Assembly (NCBI GenBank): GCA_963666365.2 | Contig: CAXXNF010000002.1 | Location: 64,001 to 128,000 of the forward strand | Length of the DNA: 64,000 nt | Source: Syntrophales bacterium | GTDB lineage: Bacteria; Desulfobacterota; Syntrophia; Syntrophales; UBA2210 | Direction: 5' to 3' | Part shown: piece after piece, positions 1 to 37,723 of the stretch | How the letters are laid out: every line of letters begins with the position of its first letter | How positions within the stretch are numbered: the first letter of the stretch is position 1 | Notes under the pieces: generated by a model | The model's database searches: none | What the model saw: the letters and a program-made list of their open reading frames with translations, nothing else | What the model was told of the DNA's origin: nothing | Position numbers and translations under genes: made by a program

Positions 1-1
1 G

Positions 2-376: not shown

Positions 377-393
377 GGTAAAGAAAAATATGG

Positions 394-639: not shown

Positions 640-679
640 AAAAAGAAGAGAGTTGACGAAACCTGCCAATAATAAGATG

Positions 680-708
680 TTGCGCTGGGACGGCAGGAAA
701 TGTATAGT
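680..708 (+). promoter_or_regulatory. Candidate sigma70 promoter of the giant gene
   Basis: TTGCGC (680-685), 17 nt, TATAGT (703-708); GGAG at 741-744 precedes GTG 753. Confidence 0.35.
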
Positions 709-752
709 AGATAAACTTTTCTAAACCCGATTTTTCTTGTGGAGCACTTTTT

Positions 753-3700
753 GTGAATAAACGGGAATCGGATACTATGTTTCAGCTTGAGGGGCTTGAG
801 CAGAGGATCATGCTTTCGGCTGATCCGCTGGTGGGCGCCCTTGCGTTGGAGCTTGCCACGCTCGATTCCCCAGTCTCCGCCACATATAGTGAATATCCAT
901 CAGAAGTAATCGATATTTCTTGCGATCTGTCGTTCCAGGAAGGGAATCCATCGGGCGAGTACGATCCCGACGCCGGCCTCGACGATCTTCTCGGCGGGCT
1001 TCCCGAAGAGCACATCAACGGCGTCGATGGTGAAGATTCCCTCACCGGGCTCGATGCCGCCGCGGCCGAAGAGGCCGATGCACCGGCGGCACGTTCACCC
1101 TTTGCCGTCACCGAACCGCAGGGGAGTGAAGGAGTTCTCTTTTTTGAAATGCTCGATACGCGGCTGCAAACAGCCGTGTATGAGTTCTACGGCGACAGCC
1201 TCGATCCTCCCGCCGCCGACGTGGTCCTGTCAGTAACACAAGATGGAAGTTTATTAATTGAAATCGGCACGTTACCCATTCTCGTCAGCGTAACGGATGC
1301 GGACAATGGTGGGGTGCATCTTTCGATCATCGCATCCGGTGAAGCGGATGAATTTCTCGTAATATCGGGGTTTTCAGTTGCATATGCCGACCTGATATTT
1401 CCTCTGCCGGCGGCTGAGTCTCTCAGTGCAGTTTCAGGAAAAATTGATATTCAGGGCGGTCTGAGCCTGGAGGGCAGTCTGCGTCTCGAGGCGGATACCA
1501 TCCTTATCGGCGCCCCTGTGCAGGCTTCCGATATCACCCTCACAGCGGGGACAATCGAAATCGATGCCCCCCTCGAAGGAACCGGCGATGGCGTGCTTGT
1601 GCTTCAACCGGCTGATGCCGATGCCGTCATCGATGTCTGCGCCGACACCGGTGCGGCCTTCGCCCTCGACGCAGAGGAATTGGATTTTATCGACGGCGGA
1701 TTCCGGGACGTCATCATCGGCCGTGAGGATGGGGCCCATGCCTTCACCCTCGGCGCCTACACCTTCGGCTTTCCGGTACTCTTCCGGGCGCCTCTCGAGG
1801 GCGGCGCCTTCGATGTGGTGGGAACGCTGCGCACCTCAGACGCCGTAAACGATATCGAACTGGGGATTTCCTTTCTCGGTTCGGGCCATACCAAGACCGT
1901 GCACACCGATACGGTGACTGCCGGCTTCGAAATTAACATCGGCGAAAGCGTTATCGTTGCCGGTGATGCGTCAGGCGTCATGGGCAACGGGGCGGTCTAT
2001 TATGATACCACGAATAACGGCGCCAACCCCACAGGCAATAATATCTATGTGAGCGGTCAGATCGACGGCCAGACGCTCGCGAGTTCCAGCTACAACAATA
2101 TGAACGTACGCATCGTGGCCGATGTGGCTGCCGGCGGGGCGGCCCATGCGGCCTATTCGTCCAGCCTGAACCGGCTCACGATCCATGTGGAAGACGATGG
2201 ATCATCGACCTCGGCCGATGTGGCCGCCGCCATCGGCAGGGTGTACAATTTTTATAATGCCGCTGCTTCAGGCACGGCTGCAGTGGGAACGGACGCGCAG
2301 AATTACCTGTCCGTGACCTCCGGTGGTTCCGCGGCCGCGCTTGCCAACGGATCATTCACACTGGGAAACGGCAACACCATCACCTTCAAGGCCGGTAATC
2401 CCGCCGGGGCGGCCTCCTTCAACGGGTCAGGCGTGCGGGTGATTGCCGACAGCGCGACCGATGCCGGCTATGCCGAATACTCGGTTTCGGATAAAATCCT
2501 TTATGTGCATATTAAAAGCGGTGTGACCACCACGGTGCAGATGAGGGAAGCCATCGCTGCGGTCTTCAATTTCTTCGACGAGACCGGCGGTGACGCAAGC
2601 GTTGTTACACTGAGCAAGACCTTTGCCTATGTGACCACCGGCGGCAAAGATGAACCCGCTGCTGCAGCTTCGGGCACATTCATCCTGTCAGGAGATACAA
2701 TTATCCTTACGGCTGCTGCCACCGGCGCATCCTGGAACGGCGTTAATGTGGTTATCGTGGCCGATGCCGCGGCGGTGAGCGCCATCTACAACGGCGGAAC
2801 AAAAGTCATCACCGTCCATGTAAAAAACGACGGGACATCCACCACTGCCGAGGTGCGTACCGCCATCAACGGCCTGGCGGACTTTACCGCCTCCGGCGGA
2901 TCCACCAACAAGGTGGCGCTGACGAAAGATTATTCCGCGGCCATCACCGGCGGCGACTACCAGACGGCCGCCAGCGGTTCCTTTACCATCGGTGATGATA
3001 CCATCGCCTTCAAGGCGGGTCGCACCATTGACGGGACCGCCTTCAACGGTCTGGATGTCCAGGTTGTCCTCGATGCCACAATCACAACTGGGGCCTGGGC
3101 CGAGTACGATGCTCCCACACGAACCCTGGTTGTGCATGCTCTTGAAACCGCCACCACCGCCGATGTGGCGGAGACTCTGGGAACGCTCTTCAATGTCTAC
3201 GATGCAGTCAGCAGCGGTAATTCGCTGGTGAATCTTTCCGCTGACTTTGACAATGTAACCACTGGCGGCAACCTCAACCAGGCGGCTTCGGGCAGCTTTG
3301 ACTTGAATGGCGACACCATCACCTTCAGCGCCGGCCGCCGGGGACAGGCGCTCTACCTGAATGCGGGGACCGACGGCGACATCACCATCCAGGGGGCTGT
3401 GGGGGTGGGAACGGCCCTGGAGCACCTTTACATCGTCAGTGCCCGCAATGTGATTGTCAACGGTCAGGTTATTCTCAGCGGCGACCTGGTGCAGGTACAG
3501 GGAACGGGAACAAGCGAGTTCGATCTGGATGTGACCGCCGGGCGGCATGTGAATATGAATGTCGAGGCGGCGATTACCTTCCAGGGAACCCTTCAGTCCA
3601 ATCACGGCGATGCGACACTGACGGTCGATCAGAGCAATGCGAGTGGCCTCATTGACATAAACAGCGCCCGCGTGCTTGCCGGCGACCTTATCATCAATGA

Positions 3701-6700
3701 AGCACGCAACGTCAGTTTTCAGGCAATTGTGACCGTTTCCGGTGCGATATACCAGTTCGCCGGTCTCGCGAATACGAGATTCTATGGTCCTGTTTCCGCC
3801 GGCAGTATCGGCATCATGGCCAACAGCCTCATCGATTTCAGAAGCACCGTGGTCCTCACCGAAGGCGATATATTTCTGATTTCGGACGAGATCGATTTCA
3901 ACGGCGGCGCCGCTTCCGTGACGGGCAAGTCTGCCATCGTACTTATGCCCACGACAAACGAGACGAGCATCGATGTGGGCTCCCCCGTGGGAGGGACGGG
4001 AACGCTTTCCATCAGCGACACGGACCTGGCGGCTCTGACCGACGGGTTTCAGTATATCCAGATTGGGTACGAGTCAGATTATGTCCACACCATGGTCGTC
4101 GGATCGAGCGCCTTTCTGGATCCTGTTCGGCTCTATGCGGGTGAAATCATTATAAACGGTAATGTGACGGGGAAGACTTCGGCATTGTTGTATGTCTCCG
4201 GCGTTGTGAGTGAAGGCGATATTCTCGCCGGTTCCCCCGCAGTCACCATCGATACCGCCGAATTCCGTATTACCAACGAGAAGATCGACGATGTATGGCT
4301 TCCCGCCGAGATCAACGTTCTTGTCTACAACGGGGACATTCTTTTGATGAATAACGGTGCGATCAACGCCAGTCTGGACACGGAGAGCACCTCAGAGACC
4401 ACGACGGTTGTCCTCACTGCGGCGAACGGCAATATTTGTCGCCAGGCTGGCTCCGAAGGATTGGTGAGCGGCACGGATCTGCAGGTCACCGCCACGGGCA
4501 ACATCGATCTCAAGACTACCGTCACCACCGCAGAGCTGTCTTCAACGGCATCAGGATCCATAACCATCGTGGAAACCGACGGCATCGACCTTGTTTCTGT
4601 CACCACAGAGAACGGTCCCATCGATATCCGGGCCGGCGGCGCCGTAATCGCGCAAAATGTAGTTTCGGTTACAGACGATGCCGGTAACGATATTACTATT
4701 CTGACCACGACCGGAAATCTTCAGGTGCAGGTGGTTGATGCACAGACCCTGGGCCATGTGGCTCTTACGGCTGAAAACGGAGCGGTGAACGATGCTGCCG
4801 GAGTCGATGCCGCAGGAACGCCAAACGTAGTGGCCAATACCGCCACGATCACGGCGAAAAACGGAATCGGCAGCGTTGCCGCCCTCGGCGATTTCAACAT
4901 GTATCTTACTACCGTTGGTGATGCCGTTGCCGGGCTGGTGGCGGAAAATACCGGTACAAGCGGCGACATCGTCGTCACGCAGGCGGCGGACGCCGGCGAC
5001 ATGACCCTTGCTGCGGCCCAGAGCAACCTTTCCGGCGCCGGTGCGGTGGTCGTATTCGTTCTCGGCGGCAACCTGACCGTGACATCCACGGGGATTGCCA
5101 TTGCCGGTTCGGGAAACACCCTGCTGAGCGCTTCGGCCGGTCTCGTGTTGAATGCACCGGTGGCGAGTACCGGCGGCAATGTCAGCCTGAGTGCCGGGGC
5201 CGGTATTACACAGACTGCCAGCGGCGACATTACGACATCGGGTGCGGGGTCGACCGTTGACATGAAGGCCGACGGCGCGATCGCCATGTTCGACGGCGCC
5301 GTGACACAGACAAACAATGGGAACATCCGTTACGAGGCTTCGACGGGCAACGTTATCCTGGGCGAACTCAAGGCCGGGACGGCGAAGGTTGCGGTGATCG
5401 CCACGGAGGGCAGTATTCTCGATTTGGATACGGACACCTCTGCGACGGACATTGCCGCCGGCGATCTGATTCTGACGGCGGGGACGGCCATCGGGGCATC
5501 GGACAACCACCTGGAAATTTCGGTTGTCAATCTGACCGCCAAATCCACTGCAGGTTCCACCTTTATTAATGAAGCGGATTCGGTCACGATCACAAATCTG
5601 ACCGTGACGGTGGAGCGTGTGACGTCCGACGGGACGCTCGATGTCACGCAACCGTCGAGCACCCAGGAAGACATGACAAGCGGCGGCATCCTTGTGTTGA
5701 CCACCATAAACGGATTCATTACGGTCAACGGTGGTACGGTCACCGCGGCTTCGGGGATCAATGCTGCGGGGAACATCCTTCTTTCGGCGGGAGAGACGAG
5801 CGAGGGGACGGCGACCGACAGCAATATCACCATCAATGGGTTGATCGCGAGTACGGGCGGCCACATCAGTATCATTGGAAAGGACGGCATTACGCAGACT
5901 GCCAGCGGCGACATTACGACATCGGGTGCGGGGTCGACCGTTGACATGAAGGCCGACGGCGCGATCGCCATGTTCGACGGTGCCGTGACACAGACGAACA
6001 ACGGGAACATCCGGTACGAGGCGGCGACGGGTAACGTTATCTTGGGCGAACTCAAGGCCGGGACGGCGAAGGTTGCGGTGATCGCCACGGAGGGCAGTAT
6101 TCTCGATTTAGGTACGGACACCTCTGCGACCGACATTGCCGCCGGCGATCTGATTCTGACGGCGGGGACGGCCATCGGGGCATCGGACGATCACCTGGAA
6201 ATTTCGGTTGTCAATCTGACCGCCAAATCCACTGCAGGTTCCACCTTTATTAATGAAGCGGATTCGGTCACGATCACAAATCTGACCGTGATGGTGGAGC
6301 GTGTGACGTCCGACGGGACGCTCGATGTCACGCAACCGTCGAGCACCCAGGAAGACCTGACAAGCGGCGGCATCCTTGTGTTGACCACCATAAACGGATT
6401 CATTACGGTCAACGGTGGTACGGTCACCGCGGCGGCGGGGATCAATGCTGCGGGGAACATCCTTCTTTCGGCGGGAGAGACGAGCGAGGGGACGGCGACC
6501 GACAGCGATATCACCATCAATGGGTTGATCGCGAGTACGGGCGGCCACATCAGTATCATCGGAAAGGACGGCATTACGCAGACTGCCAGCGGCGACATTA
6601 CGACATCGGGTGCGGGGTCGACCGTTGACATGAAGGCCGACGGCGCGATCGCCATGTTCGACGGCGCCGTGACACAGACAAACAATGGGAACATCCGTTA

Positions 6701-9700
6701 CGAGGCTTCGACGGGCAACGTTATCCTGGGCGAACTCAAGGCCGGGACGGCGAAGGTTGCGGTGATCGCCACGGAGGGCAGTATTCTCGATTTGGATACG
6801 GACACCTCTGCGACGGACATTGCCGCCGGCGATCTGATTCTGACGGCGGGGACGGCCATCGGGGCATCGGACAACCACCTGGAAATTTCGGTTGTCAATC
6901 TGACCGCCAAATCCACTGCAGGTTCCACCTTTATTAATGAAGCGGATTCGGTCACGATCACAAATCTGACCGTGACGGTGGAGCGTGTGACGTCCGACGG
7001 GACGCTCGATGTCACGCAACCGTCGAGCACCCAGGAAGACATGACAAGCGGCGGCATCCTTGTGTTGACCACCATAAACGGATTCATTACGGTCAACGGT
7101 GGTACGGTCACCGCGGCGGCGGGGATCAATGCTGCGGGGAACATCCTTCTTTCGGCGGGAGAGACGAGCGAGGGGACGGCGACCGACAGCGATATCACCA
7201 TCAATGGGTTGATCGCGAGTACGGGCGGCCACATCAGTATCATCGGAAAGGACGGCATTACGCAGACTGCCAGCGGCGACATTACGACATCGGGTGCGGG
7301 GTCGACCGTTGACATGAAGGCCGACGGCGCGATCGCCATGTTCGACGGCGCCGTGACACAGACAAACAATGGGAACATCCGTTACGAGGCTTCGACGGGT
7401 AACGTTATCTTGGGCGAACTCAAGGCCGGGACGGCGAAGGTTGCGGTGATCGCCACGGAGGGCAGTATTCTCGATTTAGGTACGGACACCTCTGCGACCG
7501 ACATTGCCGCCGGCGATCTGATTCTGACGGCGGGGACGGCCATCGGGGCATCGGACGATCACCTGGAAATTTCGGTTGTCAATCTGACCGCCAAATCCAC
7601 TGCAGGTTCCACCTTTATTAATGAAGCGGATTCGGTCACGATCACAAATCTGACCGTGATGGTGGAGCGTGTGACGTCCGACGGGACGCTCGATGTCACG
7701 CAACCGTCGAGCACCCAGGAAGACCTGACAAGCGGCGGCATCCTTGTGTTGACCACCATAAACGGATTCATTACGGTCAACGGTGGTACGGTCACCGCGG
7801 CGGCGGGGATCAATGCTGCGGGGAACATCCTTCTTTCGGCGGGAGAGACGAGCGAGGGGACGGCGACCGACAGCGATATCACCATCAATGGGTTGATCGC
7901 GAGTACGGGCGGCCACATCAGTATCATCGGAAAGGACGGCATTACGCAGACTGCCAGCGGCGACATTACGACATCGGGTGCGGGGTCGACCGTTGACATG
8001 AAGGCCGACGGCGCGATCGCCATGTTCGACGGCGCCGTGACACAGACAAACAATGGGAACATCCGTTACGAGGCTTCGACGGGCAACGTTATCCTGGGCG
8101 AACTCAAGGCCGGGACGGCGAAGGTTGCGGTGATCGCCACGGCCGGGTCTATCATCGATGGCGATAGCGCCGTGGATATAATAGCCGCCGAGGTGCGCAT
8201 GACAGCCGGCTTCGGTATCGGCAACGCCTCAGATCCGCTCGAACTGACGGTGAACACAATAAGCGCCTTCGCGGGACCCGGCGGGATGGCCCTTGCGTCA
8301 ACCGGCGCTGTTACCGTCGGATCGGTCGATATAATTGCCCGAAGGGTGATTGCCAACGGTGGAGACGAACTGGTCTACGACGTGATCCAGAGCGGTCTTC
8401 ATACGGACAATGCCGGATTCATCGTGCTTCATGCCGGCGGAACCGTGACCGTGGTTCCCGGAAAGGCGTCGGCGGTGCTGTTTCCCGACAGTGCCGAGGA
8501 GATCACGCTTGTCGCGGACGAAGGCGGGACCGCTTTCAATGGTTATGTCATCAGCCTCGAAAACGACAGTACTATCGCCGGTGACGATGCGATTGCTTCC
8601 TATAATAGTGACACGAAGACACTCACCGTAAAGGTGAGAAGCGAACAAACCACGGCAGGAACGCTGGTAACTGAGATTAATGCGGTGGACGATCTTCCCT
8701 TCACTGCGATGAGCACCGGGCCGGCCGGTGATGCCCTCGTCGTGACGGTCGGGGCTTCCGGTCTCGATTACTCGTCCCGGAACGGGACCGACGACACGGT
8801 CATCTCTGAAATTTCCACGGTGACCGACGGCGGCGACGAGGCGCTTCCCGCTTCCGCCGTCCTCCTGCCGCCGACGATAGGATTCGGTATCAAGGTGACC
8901 TCAGAAACCGCCGGCGCCGACACCAACGGCATCACCGTCAGACTGCTGGACGACGGAGCGGGTGGATATCTTGCCGACGGGACCGATACGGCGGCCGTGG
9001 TCTATGATGATGTGAACAGACGCCTCAATATATTCATCAACAACGGATTCACGACGGTCGGTGCCGTCGTGGACGAGATAAACGCCGCAGACTTGCCCTT
9101 TGCCGCAGCCATCGAAGGCAACGGAGACGGAACGGTCGTGTTGCACACAGCGCCGGTTGCCACCGTGGTGAATGTCCCCGCCCGTGTATCACTGGCGCCG
9201 CCCGGCGCAAAGAACGATATGATCATTACGGCCGCGGCTGCCGGCACCCCGTATAACGGAGTGACAGTGCGGTTCATCGATGACGGCAGCATTGCCGGAA
9301 GCAATGCCACCGCTTCCTACAACGCCGCAGACAAGATACTGACCGTGTCCATCAGAAGCGGCGCGACAACGGCCAATGCGGTCGTTACCGCCATCAACAC
9401 CCAGGGAACCTTAACGGCAGCGCTCGATACCACCACCGAGACCGTCAACGACGGGTCCGGGACCGTGCAGAGCATGTCGAGTCTGAGTTACGGGGGAGAT
9501 GCCGACACAGTGGCTCTTGCCTTTGTGCGCCCCTCGGGTGCTGAAAACGATATCCAGTTCGAAGCCAAGGACTACGGGACAGGTTTCAACGGCATCCGTA
9601 TCGATCTGATCGACGACGGTTCCTTAATTGACGGTACCGCTCGGGCCACCTACAACACGGGAACGAAGGTGCTGACCATTAACATCCAGAGTCAGTTTAC

Positions 9701-12700
9701 CGATGCCCAGGCGATTGTGGACGAGGTGAACAACGGCGACAACCGATTCGATATGCCCTTTAACGCTTCCCATGACGGTGAAAGCACCGGGGTCGGCGGC
9801 GTGACTGCCTTTGAAGCGACTATTACCGCAGAGGGCGTATCCGATACGGCCAGGGCCGTGATAAGGCCGAAGGGGACGAATAACGATCTCATCTTCACCG
9901 CCAAAGGTCCGGGGACCCAATACGGCAATGTGCTGATACGGTTCATCGATAACGGGGCCATTTCCAACGGGTCAGCCTCAGCGGTTTACAGCTCTAACAC
10001 CAAGATGCTGACGATCAATATCCAGAACGGAATCACCACCGCAGCGGCCGTGATCAGCGAAGTGAACACCGGTACGAACAGTGGCGCCATCCCCTTTACG
10101 GCATCCAGCAGTACGGGGAATGACGGTACCGGGACTATTCACACACCGGCCGTCGCCACCGACGGTGGAAGGGATGCCGTTCCCGCGGGTCTCACGCTGT
10201 CTCCTGCGGGTGCGGACAACGATTTTGTGCTGACCGCGAGTGAACCGGGTGAAGGTATGAACGGCGTCACCGTAATCCTGGTGCACGATGCCGATGTGGC
10301 TGCTGCCGGGCCGGTGGTCACCTACGCCCATACGGATTCCGAAAAAAGAGTTCTGGTAATTACGATTAAAAACGGCGTGACCATCACCGCGCAGGTAGTG
10401 GCGGCGGTCAATGCCGCAAAGGTTGAGGGCACTGCACCATTTACCGCCGTCAATGCCGCAGGCCAGAGCGGCGCCGGAACGGTTCAGGATGCAACCGTTC
10501 CCTACGCCGCCAAAGGCGCGGGCTATGTGGAAGTGGTTGCCACCGCAGGGAATATCGATATGAAGGCCGGGGCAACCGCCGTCGGCGCCCTGTATGCACG
10601 CGCACAGGGCGATCTGATTTTCTCCGCCACGACGGGCAGGATGGAGGCAGTGGCCGGGATAACGCTGGAAACGGTGACCGGTTCGATTGTCAACAGCGCC
10701 TCCACCACTGAAACCACACTGAAGGTGACAGGACAGTACCCGCTGATTCTGAACCCGGCATCGCAGACAACGGCGTCCACCAATGATCTGATAATCGACG
10801 GCCGGGGCGCCGTCACATTTGCAGGTGCAGGACTGGCTTTGAACGGTGCCGACCTGCGGGTGACCGCCGATGACGATATTACGGTACAGGTCGGGGCGCC
10901 TGTCAATGTTACTGATGGATCGGTGTCCCTCTCCTCGGAAGACAATATTGTGGTGAACGCAACGATTACGGCCGATCTGCTTACGTTCAACGCCGGTACG
11001 GATGCGGATCCCGTCCATTCCATTGCAGGCACCGGTTCCGTGACCATTGCTGCCGACCTCACCGGGGCTGTGGCCGTCACCGCCGCCGACGATGTGAACC
11101 AGAACGCCCACATCACCGCTTCCGGTGTTTCTTCAGTAGTCGTGGTTGCCACGGCAGGCGACATTACGATGCTGGACGGAACCATCACCACAGTGGTGAA
11201 CGGAGCGCTTTCCTACACGGCGGGCGACGATGTGAAACTTTCACTTCTGCAAAGCACCGGGAAAAACAATCCGCTGATTGCCGCAGTGAGTGCCGGTGAA
11301 ACGAATAACGACGGTTCCGGGACAATTACGGCGCCTACCGGCCCGGTGACGACGGCGGGAGGCACGGACACGATTCGCGCCTTCGCCACCATTGAAATCA
11401 CCGGGGAGAAGAACGATATTCGGGTTACCGCCGACCGGACGGGCGCGGATCTTAACGGGATACAGGTATCCATCGTAGATGACGGAACCGTCACGGACGG
11501 CGGCGCCGTTGTGGCCTATGATGCCGATACCAGGACTCTTACCATAACGATTGAGAGCGGAATTACCACTGCCTCCACGGTCATTAATGCCGTGAACGTG
11601 GTACCCGCAGCCATAGCGGTGACCGCCGGTGGCGCCATAATCGACAACACCGTGCTTGAGGATCCGAACATCGTTACCGCAGGGGAGGCGATACTTTCGA
11701 CCAAGGCGGGAATGGGCGGTACGGATGAAGGGAACGACATCAACACGGATGTCTTCGATCTCGATGCGGGCAATGAAGGTGCCGGCGATATCGTCATCAC
11801 ACAGGCGGCGGGACGTCCCCTTCTGGTAACGCAGATTACCCAGAAGGCGGCAGCCGGCACGGGTCACATTCTGGTTTCCACCACTGGCGACACCCTCATT
11901 CTGGCCAGCGGACAGAACGGTGTCAGCAACGCCGGGGCGGGAAACATCACCATATCGGCAGCAGACCTGGTGATTCTGGCGCCGGTAACGGCCGCTGGGG
12001 GGCAGGTAAATCTGATCGCTGCATCCCGGGTCGTTCAAAATGCGGAAGTCGCCACTGGCGGAGGATCTCTGTACGTGGCCGCCGCCGCAGGCGGTATCGA
12101 AATGATTGGGGCGGCAGCGGGCAGCAGTGTCGGAAAGGCCGCTCATGCCACGGTCATTCTTCCCGGCGACAACAACGACCTCACAATTACCGCTGTCTCG
12201 ACGGGTACGCTCTACAATGACGTGGCCATTCTCTTTGTTGACGGTTCCGCGCTGAATGCGGTCTATGCGGAAAAGCTTCTGACGATAACGGTAGTAGCCG
12301 GGGTAACTACCGCCGGAGACGTGACCGCTTTCGATTTCGACGGCGCCGGTGTGCCCTTTGCCGTGGTTTTGGCCGATGATGATCCTTCGGGCCCGAATAC
12401 CGGTGCAGGACTGGTCTATCCGCATGATCCGATATCAACAGGCGGCACCGGTATGGATGACGGCAACATCCTCTATTTCGCCCATGCCGATATCGCGGTG
12501 GGGTTGCTCGATGCCACTGCGGGAACGGTGGCGATTGTTTCTGAGAACGGCAGTGTTGTAGACAACGGTTGCAAGAATTCTTTGGGCGAGGATCTGCTGG
12601 ATGTGTCGTCTTCATCCCTGGCGATCCAGGCGGCTATAAGCGCCGGGGAGTTGGGCGCCGGCGCGAATTCCCTGGAAACATCCGTAGAAGCTCTCGCGGT

Positions 12701-27700: not shown

Positions 27701-30700
27701 CTACATAACGGAGGACAGCGGCGCGACCGTTGACGGCGTGAGCGTCACCGTGACGGAGTACCACGCCGACGGCACGACGACGGCCGTGACCGATGGAGCG
27801 CAGGCCGACCTGACGACGGAGGCCGACGGCAGCATCGTACTGGTGGCAACCCTGGGCGACATCACCCTGAATGACGGCGACGGGAACGGCACGGCAGTGA
27901 GTGCGAACGGTACAGGCAACATCCTGCTTCAGGCCCTTGCCGGCGCAATCACGGCGAATGCCGACATCCTTTCCGGGACGGGTCACATCACGATCAAGGC
28001 GGCCCAGGACATCAGCCTGAACGCCGACGTGGACGTGACGACGGCATCGCCGGGGACGGTATCGTTCACCACCGGCGGCGCCCTGAGTATGACAGGAAGC
28101 GCGACCGTCACGGCCGCGGGAAGCGCGGTCCGACTGAGCGCGACGGGTGACCTCACCGTGGGTAACCTCACGGCGACCGACGTATCGCTGATATCGGGCG
28201 GGGCCCTCATCAACGCCGCCGATTCCACAAAGAACGTAACGGCGACGAACCTGCGCATCGAGTCGACGGGTTCGGTCGGTGCGGCAGACAGGCACGTGAC
28301 GACGCACATCGACGTGCTCAGTGCCCAGTCGTCGACGGGCGGCATCTACATAACGGAAGACGACGGCGCGACCGTTGACGGCGTGAGCGTCACCGTGACG
28401 GAGTACCACGCCGACGGGACCACGACGGCCGTGACCGATGCGGTGCAGGCGGACCTGACGACGGAAGCCGACGGCAGCATCGTGCTGGTTGCGACGGCGG
28501 GTGCTCTCACCCTCAATGACGGCGACGGGAACGGCACGGTAGTGAGCGCGAACGGTGCAGGGAACATCCTGCTTCAGGCCCTGGCGGGTGCACTCACGGC
28601 GAACGCCGACATCCTTTCCGGGACGGGCCACATCACGATCAAGGCGGCCCAGGGCATCAGCCTGAACGCCGACGTGGACGTGACGACGGCATCGCCGGGG
28701 ACGGTATCGTTCACCACCGGTGGCGACCTGAGTATGACAGGAAGCGCGACCGTCACGGCCACGGGGAGCGCGGTCCGACTGAGCGCGACGGGTGACCTCA
28801 CCGTGGGTAACCTCACGGCGACCGACGTATCGCTGATATCGGGCGGGGCCCTCATCAACGCGGCCGATTCAGTAACGAACGTGACGGCGGCGCAGCTGCG
28901 CATCGAGTCGACGGGTTCGGTCGGTGCGGCAGACAGGCACGTGACGACGCACATCGACGTGCTCAGTGCCCAGTCGTCGACGGGCGGCATCTACATAACG
29001 GAAGACGACGGCGCGACCGTTGACGGCGTGAGCGTCACCGTGACGGAGTACCACGCCGACGGGACCACGACGGCCGTGACCGATGCGGTGCAGGCGGACC
29101 TGACGACGGAAGCCGACGGCAGCATCGTGCTGGTTGCGACGGCGGGTGCTCTTACCCTCAATGACGGCGACGGAAACGGCACGGCAGTGAGCGCGAACGG
29201 TGCAGGGAACATCCTGCTTCAGGCCCTGGCGGGTGCACTCACGGCGAACGCCGACATCCTTTCCGGGACGGGTCACATCACGATCAAGGCGGCCCAGGAC
29301 ATCAGCCTGAACGCCGACGTGGACGTGACGACGGCATCGCCGGGGACGGCATCACTCACCACCGGTGGCGCCCTGAGTATGACAGGAAGCGCGACCGTCA
29401 CGGCCGCGGGAAGCGCGGTCCGACTGAGCGCGACGGGTGACCTCACCGTGGGTAACCTCACGGCGTCCGATGTATCGCTGATATCGGGCGGGGGCCCTCA
29501 TCAACGCGGCCGATTCGACGAAGAACGTGACGGCGACGCACCTGCGCATCGAGTCGACGGGTTCGGTCGGTGCGGCAGACAGGCACGTGACGACGCACAT
29601 CGACGTGCTCAGTGCCCAGTCGTCGACGGGCGGCATCTACATAACGGAGGACAGCGGCGCGACTGTTGACGGCGTGAGCGTCACCGTGACGGAGTACCAC
29701 GCCGACGGCACGACGACGGCCGTGACCGATGGAGCGCAGGCCGACCTGACGACGGAGGCCGACGGCAGCATCGTACTGGTGGCAACCCTGGGCGACATCA
29801 CCCTGAATGACGGCGACGGGAACGGCACGGCAGTGAGTGCGAACGGTACAGGCAACATCCTGCTTCAGGCCCTGGCTGGCGCACTCACGGCGAATGCCGA
29901 CATCCCTTTCCGGGACGGGTCACATCACGATCAAGACCGCAGCGGACATCACCCTGAACGCCGACGTGGACGCGACAACGGCATCGCCGGGGACCATCTC
30001 GATGCACGCCGCAGGCGCCCTGAGTATGACAGGAAGCGCGACCGTCACGGCCGCGGGAAGCGCGGTCCGACTGAGCGCGACGGGTGACCTCACCGTGGGT
30101 AACCTGACGGCGACCGACGTATCGCTTATATCGGGCGGGGCCCTCATCAACGCCGCCGATTCCACAAAGAACGTGACGGCGACGCACCTGCGCATCGAGT
30201 CGACGGGTTCGGTCGGTGCGGCAGACAGGCACGTGACGACGCACATCGACGTGCTCAGTGCCCAGTCGTCGACGGGCGGCATTTACATAACGGAGGACAG
30301 CGGCGCGACTGTTGACGGCGTGAGCGTCACCGTGACGGAGTACCACGCCGGCGGCACGACGACGGCCGTGACCGATGGAGCGCAGGCCGACCTGACGACG
30401 GAGGCCGACGGCAGCATCGTACTGGTGGCGACCCTGGGCGCTCTCACCCTGAATGACGGCGACGGGAACGGGACGGCAGTGAGTGCAGACGGCGCAGGCA
30501 ACATCCTGCTTCAGGCCCTTGCGGGATCGATCGTTGCCAACGCGGACATCCTTTCCGGGACGGGGCATATCACGGTAGGCGCAGCGACCGATGTAATCGT
30601 CGCATCAGCCGTTGACATTGCAACCGGCGGCGGCGGGACGATCTGTATCAATGCCGAGACAGGGAATGTCACAATGACCGATCAAAGCCGTATTGCAGCA

Positions 30701-33700
30701 ACTTCAGGGGATATACGGGCAGTTGCCAATGAGTCAATCACGCTGGGCGGCATCGTGACAACAGCGGGAGTTTCGCTGATTGCGACGGCGGGATCGATTA
30801 TGGACGGCGGAGACAGTTTCGTCGATGTAACGGCAGAGCAACTTCTGATGTGGGCAGGTATCGGTGTCGGTACAGAGAGTGATTTCATTGAGACGACGGC
30901 AGTGACGCTATCTTCCCGTGCGACGTCGGGAGGAATTTTCATACAGGAAAGCGACGGGTTGATCATTGATGATACGACCGTGACAATTCAGCAGGTGCAG
31001 GCCGATGCCACAGTGACGCCGCGTACCGATGGGCCGCAAAGTGACCTGAGAACCACGGCGGGAAACGGCTCGATCACGGTTGTGGTGGACGGCGATATTA
31101 CGCTGAATGACGGGACGTCGCCGGCGGATGGGACGGCGGTGGCGGCAGACGGCAGCGGTAATGTGCTGATCGAAACATCGGGCGACGCCACTTTGAATGC
31201 CGCGGTGGAGAGCGAGAGCGGAGACGTGGACGTCAATGCCGACGGTGCGGTATTTATGAATGCCGGTATGTACTCAGAAGGCGGTATACTCACCATGTAT
31301 TCCTCCTCGGACATCTTCATTGAAGGGGTGGATACCGAAGGAGGCGATATTAGTATTAGGACCTATGAAAGCGGGTCCGTGTATCTGGGAAGCCTTGAGG
31401 CTTCGGGCGGCCTGGTAACAATACACTCAGCAGCGTTCATAGAGGAACTGGGAGACGACACTGGTATCGATGTCTATGCCGACGGTCTGGTCTGGACGGC
31501 GGTATCCGGGATCGGCACGCTCGGCGCCATTGAGACCTCGGCGATTCTCATGAGTTTCGATACCGCCGGTGGTGCGATTCGTGCAGCCAATGACTGTGAA
31601 GAAGACGCTATACTTGAGAAAGCATCCACGGGCGGCGGCGATCTGGAATTATCCCAGAGGGGAGGCGGGTCCCTGACGGTGGAAGATGCCGCAACATCTG
31701 ATGGTGCAGTGTCCGTCGCGGTTGCAGGACGGCGCACTCACTGCCGTACGGGTGCATGCGGTCGGCGCCGGTATCACGCTTGCCACCACGGGGTCGGGAA
31801 GTGTGTATGTCGGCGATGTAACGGCATCGGGACAGACCGTTTCCATAACATCCGCCGGAGCCATTGAAGAACTCGATGAAGATGTCGATGCCGATGTGAC
31901 GGCGGCGACACTGATCATAGCGGCGCAGAGCGGTATCGGTTCTTCGAATACCATGGAGACCTGCGTCTCGCAGGCTTCACTGGAAACGCTTACCGGCCGT
32001 ATTGATGCGGCGAATGTGTCAGATTCCCCGGTCATCGTACCTGTGATAGCAACCGGTGCCGGTGATATCCTGTTCAGCCAATCAGGCGGCGGCTCGCTCA
32101 CAGTGACCGAGGCTCGCACCGACAGCGGCGCCGTGACGCTCACTGTTGATGACGGAGAACTGAGCGTTGCACACGCCCTGTCTGCCGGCGCTGCAGGGGA
32201 TCTGTATCTGTCTACAGCCGTCTCGGGGAGTGTGGCTGTGGGGAACGCGGATGCCGGTCGCCATGTGTATATCACGACGGAAAACGGCGCCGTCACTGTT
32301 GAGGGGGGTCGTCGAATCCGGTTTCGGAGGGAGCATCCTGCTGAGCGCTGGCGGTGATGCGGGAAGCATAGCGGTGTCGGGCAGCGTGAAATCCACAAGC
32401 GGCCATATCTCAGCGGTCAGCCGGCAGAATCTCACGGTAGAGGGAAGAATCGCCACCGGTGGCGGATCCATCGATGTGGAATCATCGGATGGTTCCGTGC
32501 TGATCAGTAACGGTGCATCACTCTTGAGCAACGGCGGCGCCATAAGGGTCTGGGCTGCGCTGAATGCGGAAGTGACCGCCATCGATGCATCGCTGGGCAA
32601 CGCAAGCATTACCGCCGCCGCCGGTGGCTATCGGGGCTGCGGAAGACGCGGACGGCTACGCCGTGAGAGCGAGTGCTCTGAGACTCAGCGCCGGCCAGGC
32701 CATTGGAGGGACCGATTCATTTTCCGTTAGGATATACCTCGTCGCCGCACAGGCGGGAACAGGGGATGTGACTGTCGATAATCCCGGTTCACTGATGATC
32801 GGAACGGTTGGAGACGGGGAACACCCGGTAACGGTAAGCAGACTCCAGTCTGACGGCGCCGTGGTGTCGCTGTCCGATGGGTCGCTCAGCGGAATCGAAA
32901 CCGGTGGAGGCGCCGTGACGGTGGAAACCGCCGATGGGACGATTACGGTCAGTGAGAATGTGCAGGTAAATGGGACGGGACAGGTAATTCTCCAAGCCAA
33001 CGGAGGCTATGTGGTCCGGGATGCGGCAATCATGACGGGCGGCAATGTGGCGCTTTTGGAGTACGTGAAGGCCACCTTCATATGGAATGCGGTGGCGGAT
33101 GCACTGGCCTATTCGCTTGACATCAAATATAATGGCATTACCTACGATACCCCCTGGGTAGAAGACGGAACCACGTGGAGCAGCTGTGATCTGCCCACCG
33201 GTGACTTTGAGATGACGCTTAAACCCTTTACTTCTCAGGGATTCGGAAGCACAAGCGCGCCGCTGCTGTTTACAATAGGTGAAAGACCAGGTGCGACCGG
33301 TCCGTCGGATGCCGTGGAAACCGATCCGTTGACCTTCGGCTGGGATGCAGTAGATGATGCGCTGATGTATCAAGTGCGGATCGAGCAGGCCGGTGAGATC
33401 ATTGCCTCCCACTGGGTCAGAAATGTAAATGTGTTCACCACCGACTACACCCTTTCCCCGGGTGAGTACCAGTGGACAGTGCGTGCGTGGGCGGTGTCCG
33501 GGTACGGGCTGCGCTCGGCGCCGGCGGCATTTACCGTAACGCCGTCCGAGGAGCCTCTTCCGTTCATTCCTGCCGATGTGGTGATAGTGACACAGCAGCC
33601 CTTTACTCTCTCCTGGGATGCAGTGGAGGGTGCCCTGTGGTATAACCTGCAGCTGAAAAAAGATGGGGCTGAAGTTCTCTCCCAGTGGGTGAACGGAAGC

Positions 33701-33829
33701 AGTAACAGCTGGACTTCCGACTCGCCGCTTTCGTGGGGCAGGTATGAGTGGACGGTTCAGTACTGGACGGATGTATCTTCGGATATGGTTTTGGAAGAAA
33801 AGGTGTTGTATCTTGTGGATTTTTCGTAG
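753..33829 (+). CDS. Giant (~11,020 aa) LEPR-XLL-type repetitive surface protein/adhesin, interrupted by five +1 frameshifts in this sequence
   Basis: N-terminal FQLEGLEQRIMLSADP. The 9638-aa ORF continues through ORFs 29837, 31686, 32167 and 32585 (and 29527 before them), each one frame further on with the repeat sequence continuing. G/A/T/V/D-rich beta-helix-like repeats, 7 FTQAxID cadherin-like (CSPG-type) modules, 3 C-terminal W-x-AV-x-x-A-x-x-Y Fn3-like modules. Confidence 0.88.
5205..8142 (+). repeat. Intragenic tandem array, 684-bp (228-aa) unit, ~4.3 near-identical copies
   Basis: Unit starts (ATTAC[A/G]CAGACTGCCAGC) at 5205, 5889, 6573, 7257, 7941. Confidence 0.97.
26535..30575 (+). 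repeat. Intragenic tandem array, 645-bp (215-aa) unit, ~6.3 copies
   Basis: DGSIVL codons start at 26535, 27180, 27825, 28470, 29115, 29761, 30407; the last two spacings are 646 because of single-base insertions. Confidence 0.96.
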
Positions 33830-33847
33830 GGGAGGAACCCCATAGAG

Positions 33848-35443
33848 ATGTGTAGGGTCATGAGAAACGCGATTGTGACATGCATGGTGATTGCCTTGCC
33901 TGTGCTTATCTACGCGGGGGTCGTCCATGGTCAGACCAGGTTCGTTGCTACCTATGGCGCCGTGAGTACCGGGAATTGCGTCAATACGCACATGGTGGTG
34001 CATCAGACGACCGGAGACATCTCTCTCTGTGGTTATTATTCGGGTTCCAGCGCCTTCGGTGGAAAAGATCTGAATTCCGGAGGGGAGGCATCCCAGGCAT
34101 TCCTCATGAGACTGAACAGCGCCGGAGCGGTCAAGTGGATCAGGGAAATCCAGGGGACGGGCGTGCAGCGCGCCTTCGGCACGGCAGTGGACGGGTCGGG
34201 TAACAGCTATGTGATCGGAGAATCGACGGGTTCCGCCGTGATCCAGGGGGGAGCGAATGATGCGATGGCGCTCGCGCAAGGCGGCACATACATGTTTGTG
34301 GCGAAATACAGCGCCGACGGCGATCTCCTCTGGGCGAGAACGGGTGTGTGCGTCGATGAAAACTCGATAGGGGAGGTATCGGGGAGCGCCGTGACCGTGG
34401 ATACGTCGGGTAATGTGTACGCGACGGGCTGGTTTATGGACTCCGTATCTTTCGGCGAAGAGCCGGAAAAGCAGTACAGCGGCAGTATATTTCCCACCAA
34501 TATTTTTGTAACCAAATACGATGCAACCGGCGAAGTGGAGTGGGTACGGGCGGTAACCGACTCCGACCGGTGCCGCATTCACGGCGTTGCCGCGGCTGGT
34601 GCGGAGTCCGTCACGATAGCCGGAGAATTTTCGGGCACGGCATCTTTTGATGTGAATCATACAATCACTAGTTCAGGGGATAGCGATGTATTTATCGCCA
34701 GATACAGTGCCGCCGGTGCGGTTCAGTGGGCGCGCAAGGCCGGCGGCGCCGGTGCCGACTCCGCATACGGACTCGCCATGGATTCAACGGGTACGACAGT
34801 GGTGTCCGGACGTATCGCTAGGGGCGCCGCTGATTTCGGCGAAGGGGTCGAGGTCGCAGGCTCCGGCGACGGCAGCGGATTTGTCGCCCGCTACGATTCC
34901 CTGGGAACTCCATCCTGGGCGGTGGTGCTCGGTGGCGCAGGTGGAAGTGAAGCCAGGGGGGTATCCCTGGGACAGTCGGGCATCATTGCCGTCACCGGCG
35001 CATTCTCAGGGGAGGTCGTGTTTCCTGGAAAATATCTTGTGAGCCGCGGAGGCACGGATGTGATCGTTGCCTTTTACGAGCCCACGGGCGCCTTTGTTTC
35101 AGCGATATCGGCAGGCGGGGAGAGTGACGATGACAGCGGAAGGGCGGCGGCGTGGCAGGACGCGCTTCTTGTTGTTACAGGTAACCGGGGAACCAATCTT
35201 GAGCCTGAGGGGGGCGTGCTTTTTCTTACTTTTGTAGGCGATGTGTCTCCCGATGGAACAATTCCCGGCGATTATAACCTCGACGGGCATGTCGATTTGA
35301 ACGATGTGATCGGCATGCTTCAAATGATCATTCGCAGCGGCATTGCAGCTGAAGGCGCTATTGCCGGTGATGTGACCGGAGACGGGTATGTGGGTCTTGA
35401 GGATGTTATTGCTGTGCTTCAGAAGGTCGCGCTCCTGCGGTGA
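33848..35443 (+). CDS. Secreted beta-propeller (SBBP-like) repeat protein with C-terminal dockerin-like duplicated EF-hand motif
   Basis: Hydrophobic N-terminus; repeats such as AVDGSGNSYVIG, FVAKYSADGDLLWAR, VTVDTSGNVYATG; C-terminal GDYNLDGHVDLNDVI...GDVTGDGYVGLEDVI. Confidence 0.85.
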   Translation: MCRVMRNAIVTCMVIALPVLIYAGVVHGQTRFVATYGAVSTGNCVNTHMVVHQTTGDISLCGYYSGSSAFGGKDLNSGGEASQAFLMRLNSAGAVKWIREIQGTGVQRAFGTAVDGSGNSYVIGESTGSAVIQGGANDAMALAQGGTYMFVAKYSADGDLLWARTGVCVDENSIGEVSGSAVTVDTSGNVYATGWFMDSVSFGEEPEKQYSGSIFPTNIFVTKYDATGEVEWVRAVTDSDRCRIHGVAAAGAESVTIAGEFSGTASFDVNHTITSSGDSDVFIARYSAAGAVQWARKAGGAGADSAYGLAMDSTGTTVVSGRIARGAADFGEGVEVAGSGDGSGFVARYDSLGTPSWAVVLGGAGGSEARGVSLGQSGIIAVTGAFSGEVVFPGKYLVSRGGTDVIVAFYEPTGAFVSAISAGGESDDDSGRAAAWQDALLVVTGNRGTNLEPEGGVLFLTFVGDVSPDGTIPGDYNLDGHVDLNDVIGMLQMIIRSGIAAEGAIAGDVTGDGYVGLEDVIAVLQKVALLR

Positions 35444-35467
35444 ACGTAAAAAGATAGAATAGGATAC

Positions 35468-37723
35468 GTGAATATGCCCGATCGAAACGTGGGAATTTTT
35501 CTTTTAGCAGGCTTCTGCATCGTACTTGTTACAGTTTTTTGCCACTGCGTGTGTGGAGCAGAGGTTCGCGTTTTTACCGACACCGGGCAGAATCTGGGCG
35601 CCAGCAACAGTGAGGGAATAGCTCTCGCCGACCTCAACGGTGACGGCGCACTTGACGCGTTTGTTGCCAATGCGTCAAACCAGGGGAACCGTGTGTATTT
35701 CGGGGACGGCGCCGGTAATTTTACCGACAGTGGGCAGAACCTTGGTGCCTCTGCGAGCGTGGTGGTCGCGCTCGGGGACCTGAATGGAGACGGTTTTTCG
35801 GATGCAGTTGTGGGCAATAAGACCGGCCAGGCCAACCGCGTGTGGTTCAACAACGGCGCCGGCAATTTTACCAACAGCGGCCAGAGTCTCGGATCCGGAA
35901 ACACCGAAGGCATTGCGCTGGCCGACTTCAACGGAGACGGAAGTCTTGATATTTTTGAGGTGAATAATTTAGGTCTCCAGGGGAACCGGATACGGCTCAA
36001 CGACGGATCGGGAGTATGTGCCGATGCCGGATGGAATCTCGGCTTGTACAGCAGCAGAGATGTTGTTGCGGGCGATCTGAATGGTGACGGTTATCCCGAT
36101 GCGGTGGTGGCTACCCAGACGGACGGCATTCGGGTCTATCTCAATGCGGCCGACGGCAGCGGCCTGCTGGTCGAAAATAGCACCCCCCTTACCGGAAGCA
36201 TCGGTACGAACAGTATGGGAATCGCCCTGGGCGATGTAAACGGCGATGGGTTCTTCGATCTCTATGTGGCCAACTACGCCCAGGGGAACCGTGTGTATTT
36301 CGGTGACGGCGCCGGTAATTTTACCGAAAGCGCACAGAGTCAGGACTATCCTTTGGGAAACAGAAACAGTACCGACGTGACGCTTGTTGATGTCGACGAT
36401 AACGGTACACTCGACGCATTCGTCGCCAACGACGGGCAGGGGAATTGCCTTTGGCTCAATGATGGGAATGGAAATTTTTCCGATAGCGGCCTGAGCATGG
36501 GTGCGGATAAGAGCATGAACATTGCAATGGGTGATTTCAATGATGACCTGTATCCGGACGCCTTTGTCGTCAATACCAGCGGTCAGGCGAACCGGGTGCT
36601 GCTGAACAGTGTCGGCCTGTTTAAGGCCGGTCCCCAGGATCTGATACCTGTCAGCGGCGACAGCAACAGCGTCATGGTGAAACTGGCCGACCTGAACGGA
36701 GACGGTGCGCTGGATGCATTCGTGGTGAATAATCTTCAAGGTGACCTGGTGTGGCTGAATGACGGAACGGGAACATTCATGGACAGCGGTCAGTCACTGG
36801 GCGGCGCCGCGCCTGGCAGCGATGTGGCCTTGGCCGATTTGAACAGAGATCGCCGCATCGATGCCTTCGTCGTAAACAATGGGGCGCCGGACACGGTCTG
36901 GTTCAATGACGGCGCTGGAAATTTTACGGACAGTGGCCAGATTTTGGGTGCGCTTCTGTCCTCGGGTATGGCGGTCGCCCTCGGTGATTTGAATGGCGAC
37001 GGCAGTCCCGATGCCTTCGTGGTGAATGATCTTCAGGACGACCTGGTCTGGTTGAATGACGGAACGGGGATATTCAGCAGCAACGGCCAGGCGCTGGGCG
37101 GTGCGTCGCCAGGCAGAGCCGTAGCGTTGGGCGACCTGAACGGGGATCGCCACATCGATGCCTTTGTCGTCAACGACGGGGCGCCGGACACGGTCTGGTT
37201 CAATGACGGCGCCGGAACGTTCACGGACAGCGGCCAGACCCTGGGCGGGCTTTCGGCGGGCCGGGCCGTGGTTCTCGCGGATTTCAACAACGACGGTTCT
37301 CTCGATGCCTTTGTAACCAATAACGGTGCGAACACCCTGTGGTGGAATGACGGCGCCGGTACGTTCACCGACAGCGGCCTTGCCGTGGGTACGGGAAGCA
37401 GTACCGGTGTGGCAGTGACGGATCTTAACTATGACGGGTACTACGATCTGGTCATCACGAATTCCGGAGCAGGGGAAAACAACGAGGTCTGGCTCAGCAA
37501 CGGCAAGAGCGGCGGATTTACCCTCGCTTCTGAACTGTCATCACGGGGCGCTTCCTCAGTGGCGGTGGGAGATTTGAATGGAGACGGGACCCCCGACCTC
37601 TTCGTGACCAACAACGGCATCCCTTCAGGCAGCGGCGCCCCCGACAAGGCCTATTTCAATTTCCGTCTGCGCCCGCCGAGCGGCGGCAGCGGCGGATGTT
37701 TCATTACGACAATCGCCGAGTGA
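35468..37723 (+). CDS. Secreted FG-GAP/VCBS repeat protein (14 repeats) with C-terminal GGSGGCFI (CFI-box-CTERM-like) tail
   Basis: Signal-peptide-like N-terminus; 14 D(L/F/V)NGDG-type Ca-binding motifs; ends PPSGGSGGCFITTIAE. Confidence 0.9.
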   Translation: MNMPDRNVGIFLLAGFCIVLVTVFCHCVCGAEVRVFTDTGQNLGASNSEGIALADLNGDGALDAFVANASNQGNRVYFGDGAGNFTDSGQNLGASASVVVALGDLNGDGFSDAVVGNKTGQANRVWFNNGAGNFTNSGQSLGSGNTEGIALADFNGDGSLDIFEVNNLGLQGNRIRLNDGSGVCADAGWNLGLYSSRDVVAGDLNGDGYPDAVVATQTDGIRVYLNAADGSGLLVENSTPLTGSIGTNSMGIALGDVNGDGFFDLYVANYAQGNRVYFGDGAGNFTESAQSQDYPLGNRNSTDVTLVDVDDNGTLDAFVANDGQGNCLWLNDGNGNFSDSGLSMGADKSMNIAMGDFNDDLYPDAFVVNTSGQANRVLLNSVGLFKAGPQDLIPVSGDSNSVMVKLADLNGDGALDAFVVNNLQGDLVWLNDGTGTFMDSGQSLGGAAPGSDVALADLNRDRRIDAFVVNNGAPDTVWFNDGAGNFTDSGQILGALLSSGMAVALGDLNGDGSPDAFVVNDLQDDLVWLNDGTGIFSSNGQALGGASPGRAVALGDLNGDRHIDAFVVNDGAPDTVWFNDGAGTFTDSGQTLGGLSAGRAVVLADFNNDGSLDAFVTNNGANTLWWNDGAGTFTDSGLAVGTGSSTGVAVTDLNYDGYYDLVITNSGAGENNEVWLSNGKSGGFTLASELSSRGASSVAVGDLNGDGTPDLFVTNNGIPSGSGAPDKAYFNFRLRPPSGGSGGCFITTIAE

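Follow-up and report, generated by a model that had tools for sequence, protein, structure and literature searches.

Giant bacterial proteins that begin with a LEPR-XLL motif are collected in a family (NF012209, LEPR-8K) of which only the motif is named; no function is in print. This study concerns one such protein, here called giant-2, and the two propeller proteins encoded directly behind it (P0007 and P0008). The window analysed is a 64,000-nt stretch, positions 64,001 to 128,000 of the forward strand of contig CAXXNF010000002.1 (C2), from the assembly GCA_963666365.2 of a Syntrophales bacterium; coordinates are window positions unless they carry the prefix C1: or C2:, C1 being another contig of the same genome. 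As in the LEPR-8K proteins, the same N-terminal motif of ~24 aa scores above cut-off on a protein of many thousand residues, and it does so on three giants of this genome, two of which are in tandem. The family name presumably points to a very large protein of about 8,000 aa, a size that giant-2 fits with 9,638 aa in one frame.

Among the better-known large exoproteins, LapA, SiiE and MpIBP are type I secreted giant RTX adhesins. Giant-2 is similar to these as a giant, repetitive and acidic surface fibre whose candidate exporter has TolC and HlyD-type parts, but it has no RTX nonapeptides, its targeting motif is N- rather than C-terminal, and the cassette block contains no ABC transporter. The commonest module of giant-2 shares the right-handed beta-helix shaft of the TpsA exoproteins (EtpA, HMW1, HxuA and FHA), although neither a Sec signal nor a TPS domain was found in it. 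With cohesin-dockerin systems, the genome shares protein tails that have the same duplicated D.N.DG..D loop-helix pattern; here, however, the system is without carbohydrate-active enzymes, and the carriers are large Ig/cadherin/propeller proteins.

The following data on export loci were found in the literature. Kamneva et al. 2015 described one strand-coupled block of genes for a SecA_DEAD protein without the C-terminal part, an M50/HlyD fusion, a GAF-HlyD protein, HlyD and OEP; in their proposal, the SecA-like protein acts as the ATPase and the M50 protein forms the membrane part (PMC4452313). As far as the accessible main text of that paper goes, no substrate is named, and the words 'giant', 'LEPR' and 'adhesin' occur 0 times; Methylobacterium extorquens AM1, a tractable carrier of the cassette, is named in it. 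The same parts, as described there, are found in a strand-coupled block in the present genome, where the block directly precedes a LEPR giant. In the Omnitrophota giants, according to the accessible part of the preprint, a SecA DEAD and preprotein-binding module without scaffold and wing is fused to the giant and has a proposed role in its own export; transmembrane regions are fused as well, the neighbours are type II/IV-like, and 'LEPR', 'TolC' and 'HlyD' occur 0 times (bioRxiv 10.1101/2023.11.21.568195). In contrast to the built-in SecA part described in that text, the SecA-like protein here is encoded by a separate 678-aa gene in a TolC/HlyD block.

The explanation that we favour, and to which we give a joint probability of about 0.6, is that positions 753-33829 encode one LEPR-XLL (LEPR-8K) exoprotein, a fibre composed mainly of a right-handed beta-helix shaft with CSPG/cadherin-like repeats and an FnIII cap; that this is one of two tandem LEPR giants exported by a leader/PqqD/M50/short-SecA/TolC route; that the breaks in its reading frame are assembly errors; and that the propellers are Sec-exported neighbours. 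The region forms the last part of an island of more than 110 kb whose genes encode enormous surface-fibre proteins. The novelty lies in the present instance of a cassette together with giants, and in the dockerin observation.

Leader and modules of the giant protein

The features of giant-2 are as follows.

753..29669, + strand: main open frame of giant-2, 9,638 aa from GTG 753; likelier start ATG 777, MFQLEGLEQRIMLSADP
780..848, + strand: LEPR-XLL (LEPR-8K) leader motif, then acidic low-complexity linker (NF012209 36.5 bits, cut-off 17)
4944..8288, + strand: R2 beta-helix shaft modules, 228-aa units, some copies 97-100% identical
12783..15404, + strand: R2 beta-helix shaft modules, diverged copies
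20550..25352, + strand: Cadherin_3/CSPG-type repeats, 7 Pfam stretches, period about 230 aa
25752..30574, + strand: R2 beta-helix shaft modules, 215-aa (645-nt) tandem units with 91-94% DNA identity; includes breaks 1 and 2
33053..33829, + strand: three FnIII-like modules and the conserved giant C-terminal end, stop included

The match to NF012209 covers residues 2-24 from ATG 777 and scored 31 bits when the protein was scanned and 36.5 bits when the genome was, both above the curated cut-off of 17, which identifies the LEPR-XLL-like N-terminal motif recognised in the initial annotation of the window. Alignment of the leaders of the genome's three giants gave the invariant pattern F.LE.LE.R..LSAD, and their N-termini have only this leader and the acidic linker in common. 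No hydrophobic segment was found in the first 40 residues of giant-2, and no Pfam family at all, the TPS domain included, in its first 4,000 aa. In the main frame, GGxGxD occurs once in 9,638 aa and the full nonapeptide pattern 0 times. These data support the earlier description of an extracellular fibre-type giant without a hydrophobic Sec signal, RTX repeats or autotransporter features. The additional claim that the protein has no transmembrane anchor is plausible rather than proven, because Kyte-Doolittle (KD) hydropathy shows several A/V/G/I-rich 19-mers of 1.6-1.9 inside the repeats.

The protein is acidic and cysteine-poor (D+E 11.0%, K+R 3.2%, C 0.3%). The G+C content of the giant genes, 58-67% vs 52% genome-wide, may result from their Ala/Gly/Thr/Val-rich composition or from a foreign origin.

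The R2 unit of 215-228 aa is present in 17 copies in the intact frame, and a model of two R2 units (pLDDT 92, pTM 0.88) is an all-beta solenoid. When this model was compared with 48,161 PDB representatives, the best match was EtpA (8vba_A; Z 21.8, rmsd 5.1, 353 of 430 residues aligned), and further matches were a curli subunit and the secretion domains of EtpA, HMW1 (Z 17.9) and HxuA (Z 16.4). The sequence identity of the shaft to the matched structures was 12-20%, and Foldseek on the same model returned nothing at E <= 0.001.

The Cadherin_3/CSPG match reached 381 bits over 7 stretches, at about aa 6600-8200, and a PDB sequence search with three pieces of giant-2 returned CSPG4 alone (E 2.9e-4). 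Further repeat families have periods of about 105, 112 and 120-168 aa, and an ESM Atlas search with two unassigned repeat regions gave unnamed clusters only. At the C-terminal end, the Pfam fn3 score was only 17.8 bits, and the fold model (pLDDT 80) matched tandem FnIII structures at E 1.6e-11 to 1e-9, in agreement with the three Fn3-like modules proposed before; SiiE was also among the fold matches. This FnIII cap is conserved at the C-terminal end of relatives.

Frame breaks in the 3' part of the gene

Coding of giant-2 continues from 29669 to 33829 only via five +1 frame changes, each with one base too many. Read through these breaks from ATG 777, the protein has about 11,015 aa. The ~11,000-aa protein of the initial annotation is therefore obtained when the five breaks are read through, but not as a single open reading frame (ORF), as the frame ends at 29669. 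Contigs of two public runs (X1 and X2) were aligned to 29300-33900 as a check of the breaks, which are located as follows.

29490..29494, + strand: frame break 1 (+1), G5 run; one X2 contig is one base shorter at 29492
29904..29906, + strand: frame break 2 (+1), CCC run; three X1 contigs and one X2 contig are one base shorter at 29904
31720..31735, + strand: frame break 3 (+1), approximate place (about 31720-31735); X1 contigs end at 31722 and restart at 31787
32303..32308, + strand: frame break 4 (+1), G6 run; an X1 contig ends at 32307
32620..32628, + strand: frame break 5 (+1), approximate place (about 32620-32628); X1 contigs meet at 32626/32627

The repeat sequences of the intact part continue in the pieces of the broken frame, the last of which ends at 33829, and these pieces contain no stop codons apart from the frame changes themselves. 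An uninterrupted relative of 750 aa (P0253) is collinear with the last three pieces at 33-41% identity: its aa 1-156 correspond to the piece after break 3, aa 234-355 to the piece after break 4 and aa 359-727 to the last piece, and it runs in one frame across the equivalents of breaks 4 and 5.

A defect of the same kind is present in an ordinary metabolic gene of the window. The hcp gene (prismane, hybrid-cluster protein; 43617-45258, - strand) is split into two ORFs, matching profile positions 49-385 and 386-512, by one extra base in a C6 run near 44008-44013, which indicates that homopolymer insertion errors are not confined to the giants in this record. All examined breaks are +1 (9/9 in the three giants and 10/10 counting hcp), and a G or C run of 5-8 lies within the overlap stretch of 6/10 breaks. 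Since hcp shows the same +1 defect and all 10 breaks have the same direction, we read the breaks as assembly errors and consider it quite likely that the five in giant-2 are residual insertion errors in a poorly covered stretch of the assembly and not biology. Programmed frameshifting or slippage was also considered as a cause of the uniform +1 breaks and was set aside, as the metabolic gene has the same defect.

Some of the data weigh against this reading. The first 29 kb of the frame are intact, whereas all five breaks fall within 3.2 kb, and three of the breaks lie outside runs of 5 or more, a pattern that real decay of the 3' end could also produce; moreover, the X1 and X2 contigs that are one base shorter at breaks 1 and 2 may be derived from other copies of the repeat. 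The corresponding alternative is that giant-2 is a decaying pseudogene in which real slippage breaks remove the last 1,400 residues, the propellers and a truncated CFI tail being what is left of a surface-protein island in degradation. Besides the clustering of the breaks, this would be consistent with the gene debris directly downstream (DUF1538 and IstB fragments, and an IS110 transposase), with the lack of the membrane part in the CFI tail of P0008, and with an X1 read depth of about 2 over 30.2-32.7 kb vs 7 in the flanking sequence, as might be seen with a minority variant. Against it, the breaks in giant-2 and in the conserved hcp gene all have one direction, as a systematic error would produce, the pieces are free of other stops and collinear with the intact P0253, and contigs of the other runs are without two of the extra bases. 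We regard the decaying pseudogene as rather improbable and retain assembly error as the cause of the breaks. The runs that carry a sediment metagenome label contained no more of the locus than small parts or parts borne by repeats, and no habitat is assigned on this basis.

Candidate export cassette and tandem giants

The genes of the candidate export cassette, upstream of the window, are listed here with the other two giants of the genome and the junction between the tandem giants.

1..376, + strand: 3' end of giant-1, stop at 374-376 (ORF C2:42060-64373; contig join via 531-nt repeats)
377..776, + strand: spacer between giant-1 and giant-2, with two hairpin-forming inverted repeats and, by eye, a weak promoter-like TTGACG...TAAGAT
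Upstream of giant-1, same strand: OEP/TolC, 522 aa (OEP 134 bits)
Upstream of giant-1, same strand: HlyD adaptor, 291 aa (HlyD_D23)
Upstream of giant-1, same strand: GAF-HlyD adaptor, 624 aa (GAF and HlyD_D23)
C1:13245-15398, same strand as giant-1: PqqD-like/M50/adaptor fusion, 718 aa (M50 27.3 bits, cut-off 27.2)
C1:11254-13290, same strand as giant-1: short SecA, 678 aa (SecA_DEAD 300.6 bits, SecA_PP_bind 98.9 bits)
C2:2378938 to 2347822, - strand: giant-3, 3,849 + 6,562 aa, with one +1 break at a G8 run (LEPR-8K; island C2:2345238-2378938)

A tandem array with a 531-nt unit occupies C1:1-3877 and corresponds, in reverse orientation, to C2:393-18592 at about 97%. From this match we conclude that the two contigs are joined, and that the giant of C1 continues into C2 and ends at window position 376. 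Giant-1 starts at C1:10792 on the minus strand of C1, has at least 25,000 aa across the join, and directly precedes giant-2, which begins 400 nt past its stop on the same strand. Its repeat array comprises at least 22 kb of 531-nt repeats that are about 97% identical, with the contig break within the array; several +1 frame breaks and a garbled stretch (C2:39175-42060) are present as well. The 400-nt spacer contains GC-rich hairpin-forming inverted repeats within 470-560, around 480-500 and 530-555, and a consensus promoter scan of it was not above shuffles.

A set of six genes lies upstream of giant-1 on the same strand, and five of them form an export-type cassette. The short SecA is without the C-terminal scaffold and wing, its match to the full-SecA model extending to about position 606 of 789. 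The M50 fusion shows 7 hydrophobic segments, and its PqqD (18.8 bits) and RND_mfp (32.3 bits) matches are both below cut-off. One short SecA and one long M50 fusion are the sole such genes detected in the genome, the short SecA being its second SecA_DEAD gene. Cassette, two giants and two propellers stand on one strand over more than 110 kb. As the host anaerobe bears TolC, it probably has a double membrane.

The link between the cassette and LEPR giants was also examined in a sample of 300 genomes of the phylum, where LEPR-8K was found in 8 genomes and a long homologue of the M50 fusion (E <= 1e-48) in 19/300. The fusion occurred in 6/8 LEPR genomes vs 13/292 others (Fisher p 7e-7, a value obtained on related genomes that are not independent, with an E threshold chosen after seeing the list). 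In three genomes (G251, G087 and G304), the start of the M50 fusion lies about 2.4-2.8 kb past the giant frame on the same strand, and in another (G210) its end is 2.2 kb ahead of that frame, also on the same strand.

Based on this evidence, drawn from sequence comparison, the cassette is the likely export machine of the giants. The initial annotation held that the export route of the giant was not encoded in the window; a candidate cassette is present in the genome, upstream of the window. A standard secretion signal with a cognate transporter, able to account for the giant by itself, would have counted against the assembly locus of that annotation, and this is partly the case: a candidate transporter, cognate but non-standard, precedes the tandem giants on their strand. 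In the proposed mechanism, the short N-terminal leader would be recognised by the PqqD-like domain and cut by the M50 protease, and the SecA-like ATPase would drive the unfolded chain via the adaptor/TolC conduit to the surface, with neither Sec nor an ABC transporter taking part. The propellers P0007 and P0008 would be exported separately by Sec and would probably be co-expressed with the giant.

Several observations count against this assignment. DUF3467 was not found in the genome, which is 94% complete; no M50 fusion was found in 2/8 LEPR genomes, and the fusion occurs in 13 genomes without a LEPR-8K match; a distance of about 75 kb separates the cassette from giant-2, and this only if the contig join is right; and giant-2 has its own 400-nt upstream region. 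A classical export of the giant, either by a type I system with an ABC transporter or by two-partner secretion, with the SecA/M50 cassette serving something else, would agree with the TpsA exoprotein fold of the shaft, with the type-I-like TolC and HlyD parts of the cassette and with the giants being only a putative substrate of the cassette. Such a route is very unlikely in our estimation, since the N-terminus of giant-2 has no Sec signal and no TPS-domain match, GGxGxD is found a single time in 9,638 aa, no ABC domain was detected in the six genes upstream of giant-1 (no genome-wide search for TpsB or a type I ABC protein was made), and the cassette co-occurs with and adjoins LEPR giants in other genomes. 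The cassette-dependent route is accordingly kept as part of the favoured explanation.

Propeller neighbours and dockerin-type tails

The two genes behind giant-2 have the following features.

33848..35443, + strand: P0007, with signal-peptide-like N-terminus, SBBP beta-propeller and C-terminal dockerin-like module
35228..35440, + strand: dockerin-like tail of P0007, two D.N.DG..D loop-helix segments (Dockerin_1 17.0 bits, below cut-off)
35468..37723, + strand: P0008, with signal-peptide-like N-terminus and FG-GAP/VCBS repeats; ends GGSGGCFITTIAE
37679..37711, + strand: CFI-box-like motif of P0008 without membrane helix and basic tail (NF041763 14.2/14.4 bits, cut-off 15.9)

Giant-2, P0007 and P0008 are all on the + strand and separated by gaps of 18 nt (33829 to 33848) and 24 nt (35443 to 35468), exactly the co-oriented arrangement that had been described. 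The counts of promoters and terminators in the scan were within the shuffle range and provide no evidence for or against co-transcription. A single match was obtained in an RNA library, a 227-nt contig with 1 mismatch at 32357-32583, which is too little for a claim of transcription.

Both P0007 and P0008 have a hydrophobic N-terminal segment, as expected from the signal-peptide-like N-termini noted earlier. Their propeller character was likewise recovered, with SBBP (PF06739) in P0007 at 34.2 bits (cut-off 20.5) and, in P0008, FG-GAP_3 at 328.4 bits over 13 stretches and FG-GAP at 106.5 bits, the repeats being above cut-off in both proteins. That P0008 forms two propellers, the 'double propeller' of the initial annotation, is a suggestion from the number of its repeats. 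P0007 has 192 relatives at E <= 0.001, with PF06739 in most of the listed ones, but only one close homologue (84%, on a 6.4-kb contig), the others having 39% identity or less. P0008 is a generic FG-GAP/VCBS protein without a close orthologue, its best identity being 52% over part of the length.

The GGSGGCFI tail of P0008 is below the cut-off of NF041763, which we take to be a model of the CFI-box-CTERM type, and it is without the membrane part. The same model also matches in 10/14 control genomes at E <= 1. P0008 stops 3 residues past CFITT, and no membrane helix, hydrophobic stretch or basic tail follows in any frame; no repeat or IS boundary was found at this shortened tail. A full CFI tail, with motif, membrane helix and RRKN tail, is present in the same genome on the ORF at C1:800486 (about 1,519-1,526 aa, Big_1/invasin-type). 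Judged from its sequence, the CFI-type tail of P0008 is probably not a working anchor.

The dockerin-like EF-hand pair claimed for P0007 was confirmed as a duplicated loop-helix pattern but not as a Pfam domain, since the isolated tail scored 17.0 bits against Dockerin_1 (PF00404; gathering cut-off 22.9) and was not among the 18 Dockerin_1 matches of the genome at E <= 0.01. Alignment of the tail with 11 tails of its own genome showed invariant G14, D15, D26 and D48 and the consensus GDVN.DG.VDL.DAI..LQ ... ADVNGDGRIG..DALY.L, with predicted calcium loops and helices; 5/7 of the own-genome tails matched by the P0007 tail pass the Dockerin_1 cut-off. Of the 18 genome matches, 14 are above cut-off, and most are at the ends of proteins of 770-3,900 aa. 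P0007 and P0008 form part of the large group of dockerin-tailed surface proteins found in this genome.

A comparable neighbour is found at the second site of the genome. Giant-3 is followed with a 4-nt overlap by P0249, an 861-aa signal-peptide protein with Big_9/cadherin/PKD domains and a dockerin-like tail, which scored 20.6 bits against Dockerin_1 in the whole-protein scan (cut-off 22.9) and 26.2 bits in the genome scan. The association of giants with dockerin-tailed proteins was thus seen a second time, but the three-gene system is not conserved; a loose link exists between giants and dockerin-tailed proteins in a dockerin-rich genome, and no conserved three-gene system.

The trio proposed as an assembly locus was not conserved in the relatives examined. 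No orthologue of P0007 was found in 40 relatives, and the C-end of giant-2 (FnIII cap) was found neither in 37 family genomes nor in 300 phylum genomes (E <= 1e-15 in the phylum search). Docking of the dockerin on the giant found no support in the Pfam scan either, in which no piece of giant-2 gave a cohesin match, large parts of the protein being without an assignable fold. The genome's only two Cohesin matches are elsewhere, at C1:809258 (45.1 bits) and C1:826688 (33.7 bits), and their carriers on C1 are P0251 (1,002 aa, eight CarboxypepD_reg domains) and P0250 (203 aa). Both carriers are within a surface-protein island (C1:799000-829500) that also encodes proteins of 1,659 and 2,845 aa and the CFI-tailed Big_1/invasin-type protein.

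The view that the three genes form a dedicated assembly, in which P0007 docks calcium-dependently on modules of giant-2 and P0008 is a third component, appears unlikely to us. It is favoured by the close spacing on one strand, and by the fact that both giant 3' ends with a non-giant successor precede a dockerin-tailed signal-peptide protein (P0007 and P0249). The chance of the latter is about 3e-5 from ~19 such genes among roughly 3,600 (gene number assumed), a figure that is too small because surface-protein genes cluster anyway. An internal Dockerin_1 match of 34 bits in giant-3 also agrees with it, as do about 4,000 aa of giant-2 without Pfam or PDB match, which could hide a receptor. However, the cohesins are elsewhere than in giant-2, P0007 has its single close homologue and no orthologue in the relatives, and P0008 is of a generic type with no close orthologue. 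Moreover, the 5 other genomes with LEPR giants have 0-1 Dockerin_1 matches each, none of them on the contig of the giant. P0007 and P0008 are probably ordinary secreted propeller proteins, neighbours of giant-2 rather than fixed partners, as the favoured explanation states.

Further downstream in the window, gene debris lies 3' of P0008 (37856-38735), where a DUF1538 fragment (profile positions 3-120 of 211) is overlapped by an IstB fragment. An IS110-family transposase follows at 46540-47310. A 542-aa ORF (58129-59757, - strand) combines electron-transfer-flavoprotein alpha, helix-turn-helix and cupin parts; it represents either a fusion of unusual type or two genes merged into one reading frame.

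The largest proteins of bacteria include the LEPR-XLL giants, whose export mechanism is not in print. With three tagged giants and one recognisable cassette in a genome, two of the giants being in tandem behind the cassette, the link from leader to protease to SecA-like motor becomes testable. In assemblies, such giant genes are interrupted by breaks or divided between contigs, which leads to underestimates of how large and how many they are. A weak suggestion from the dockerin-tailed neighbours is that LEPR fibres are decorated with docking modules. A more speculative extension, which we consider doubtful, is that the whole block, more than 110 kb long, works as a single system for export and assembly, in which the machine would export two tandem giants (at least 25,000 and about 11,000 aa) as a composite beta-helix fibre, and dockerin-tailed Sec proteins whose genes directly follow the giants would clip onto the fibre or onto the cohesin carriers. 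If true, a docking network resembling the cellulosome would here serve the architecture of the surface in an anaerobe with a double membrane.

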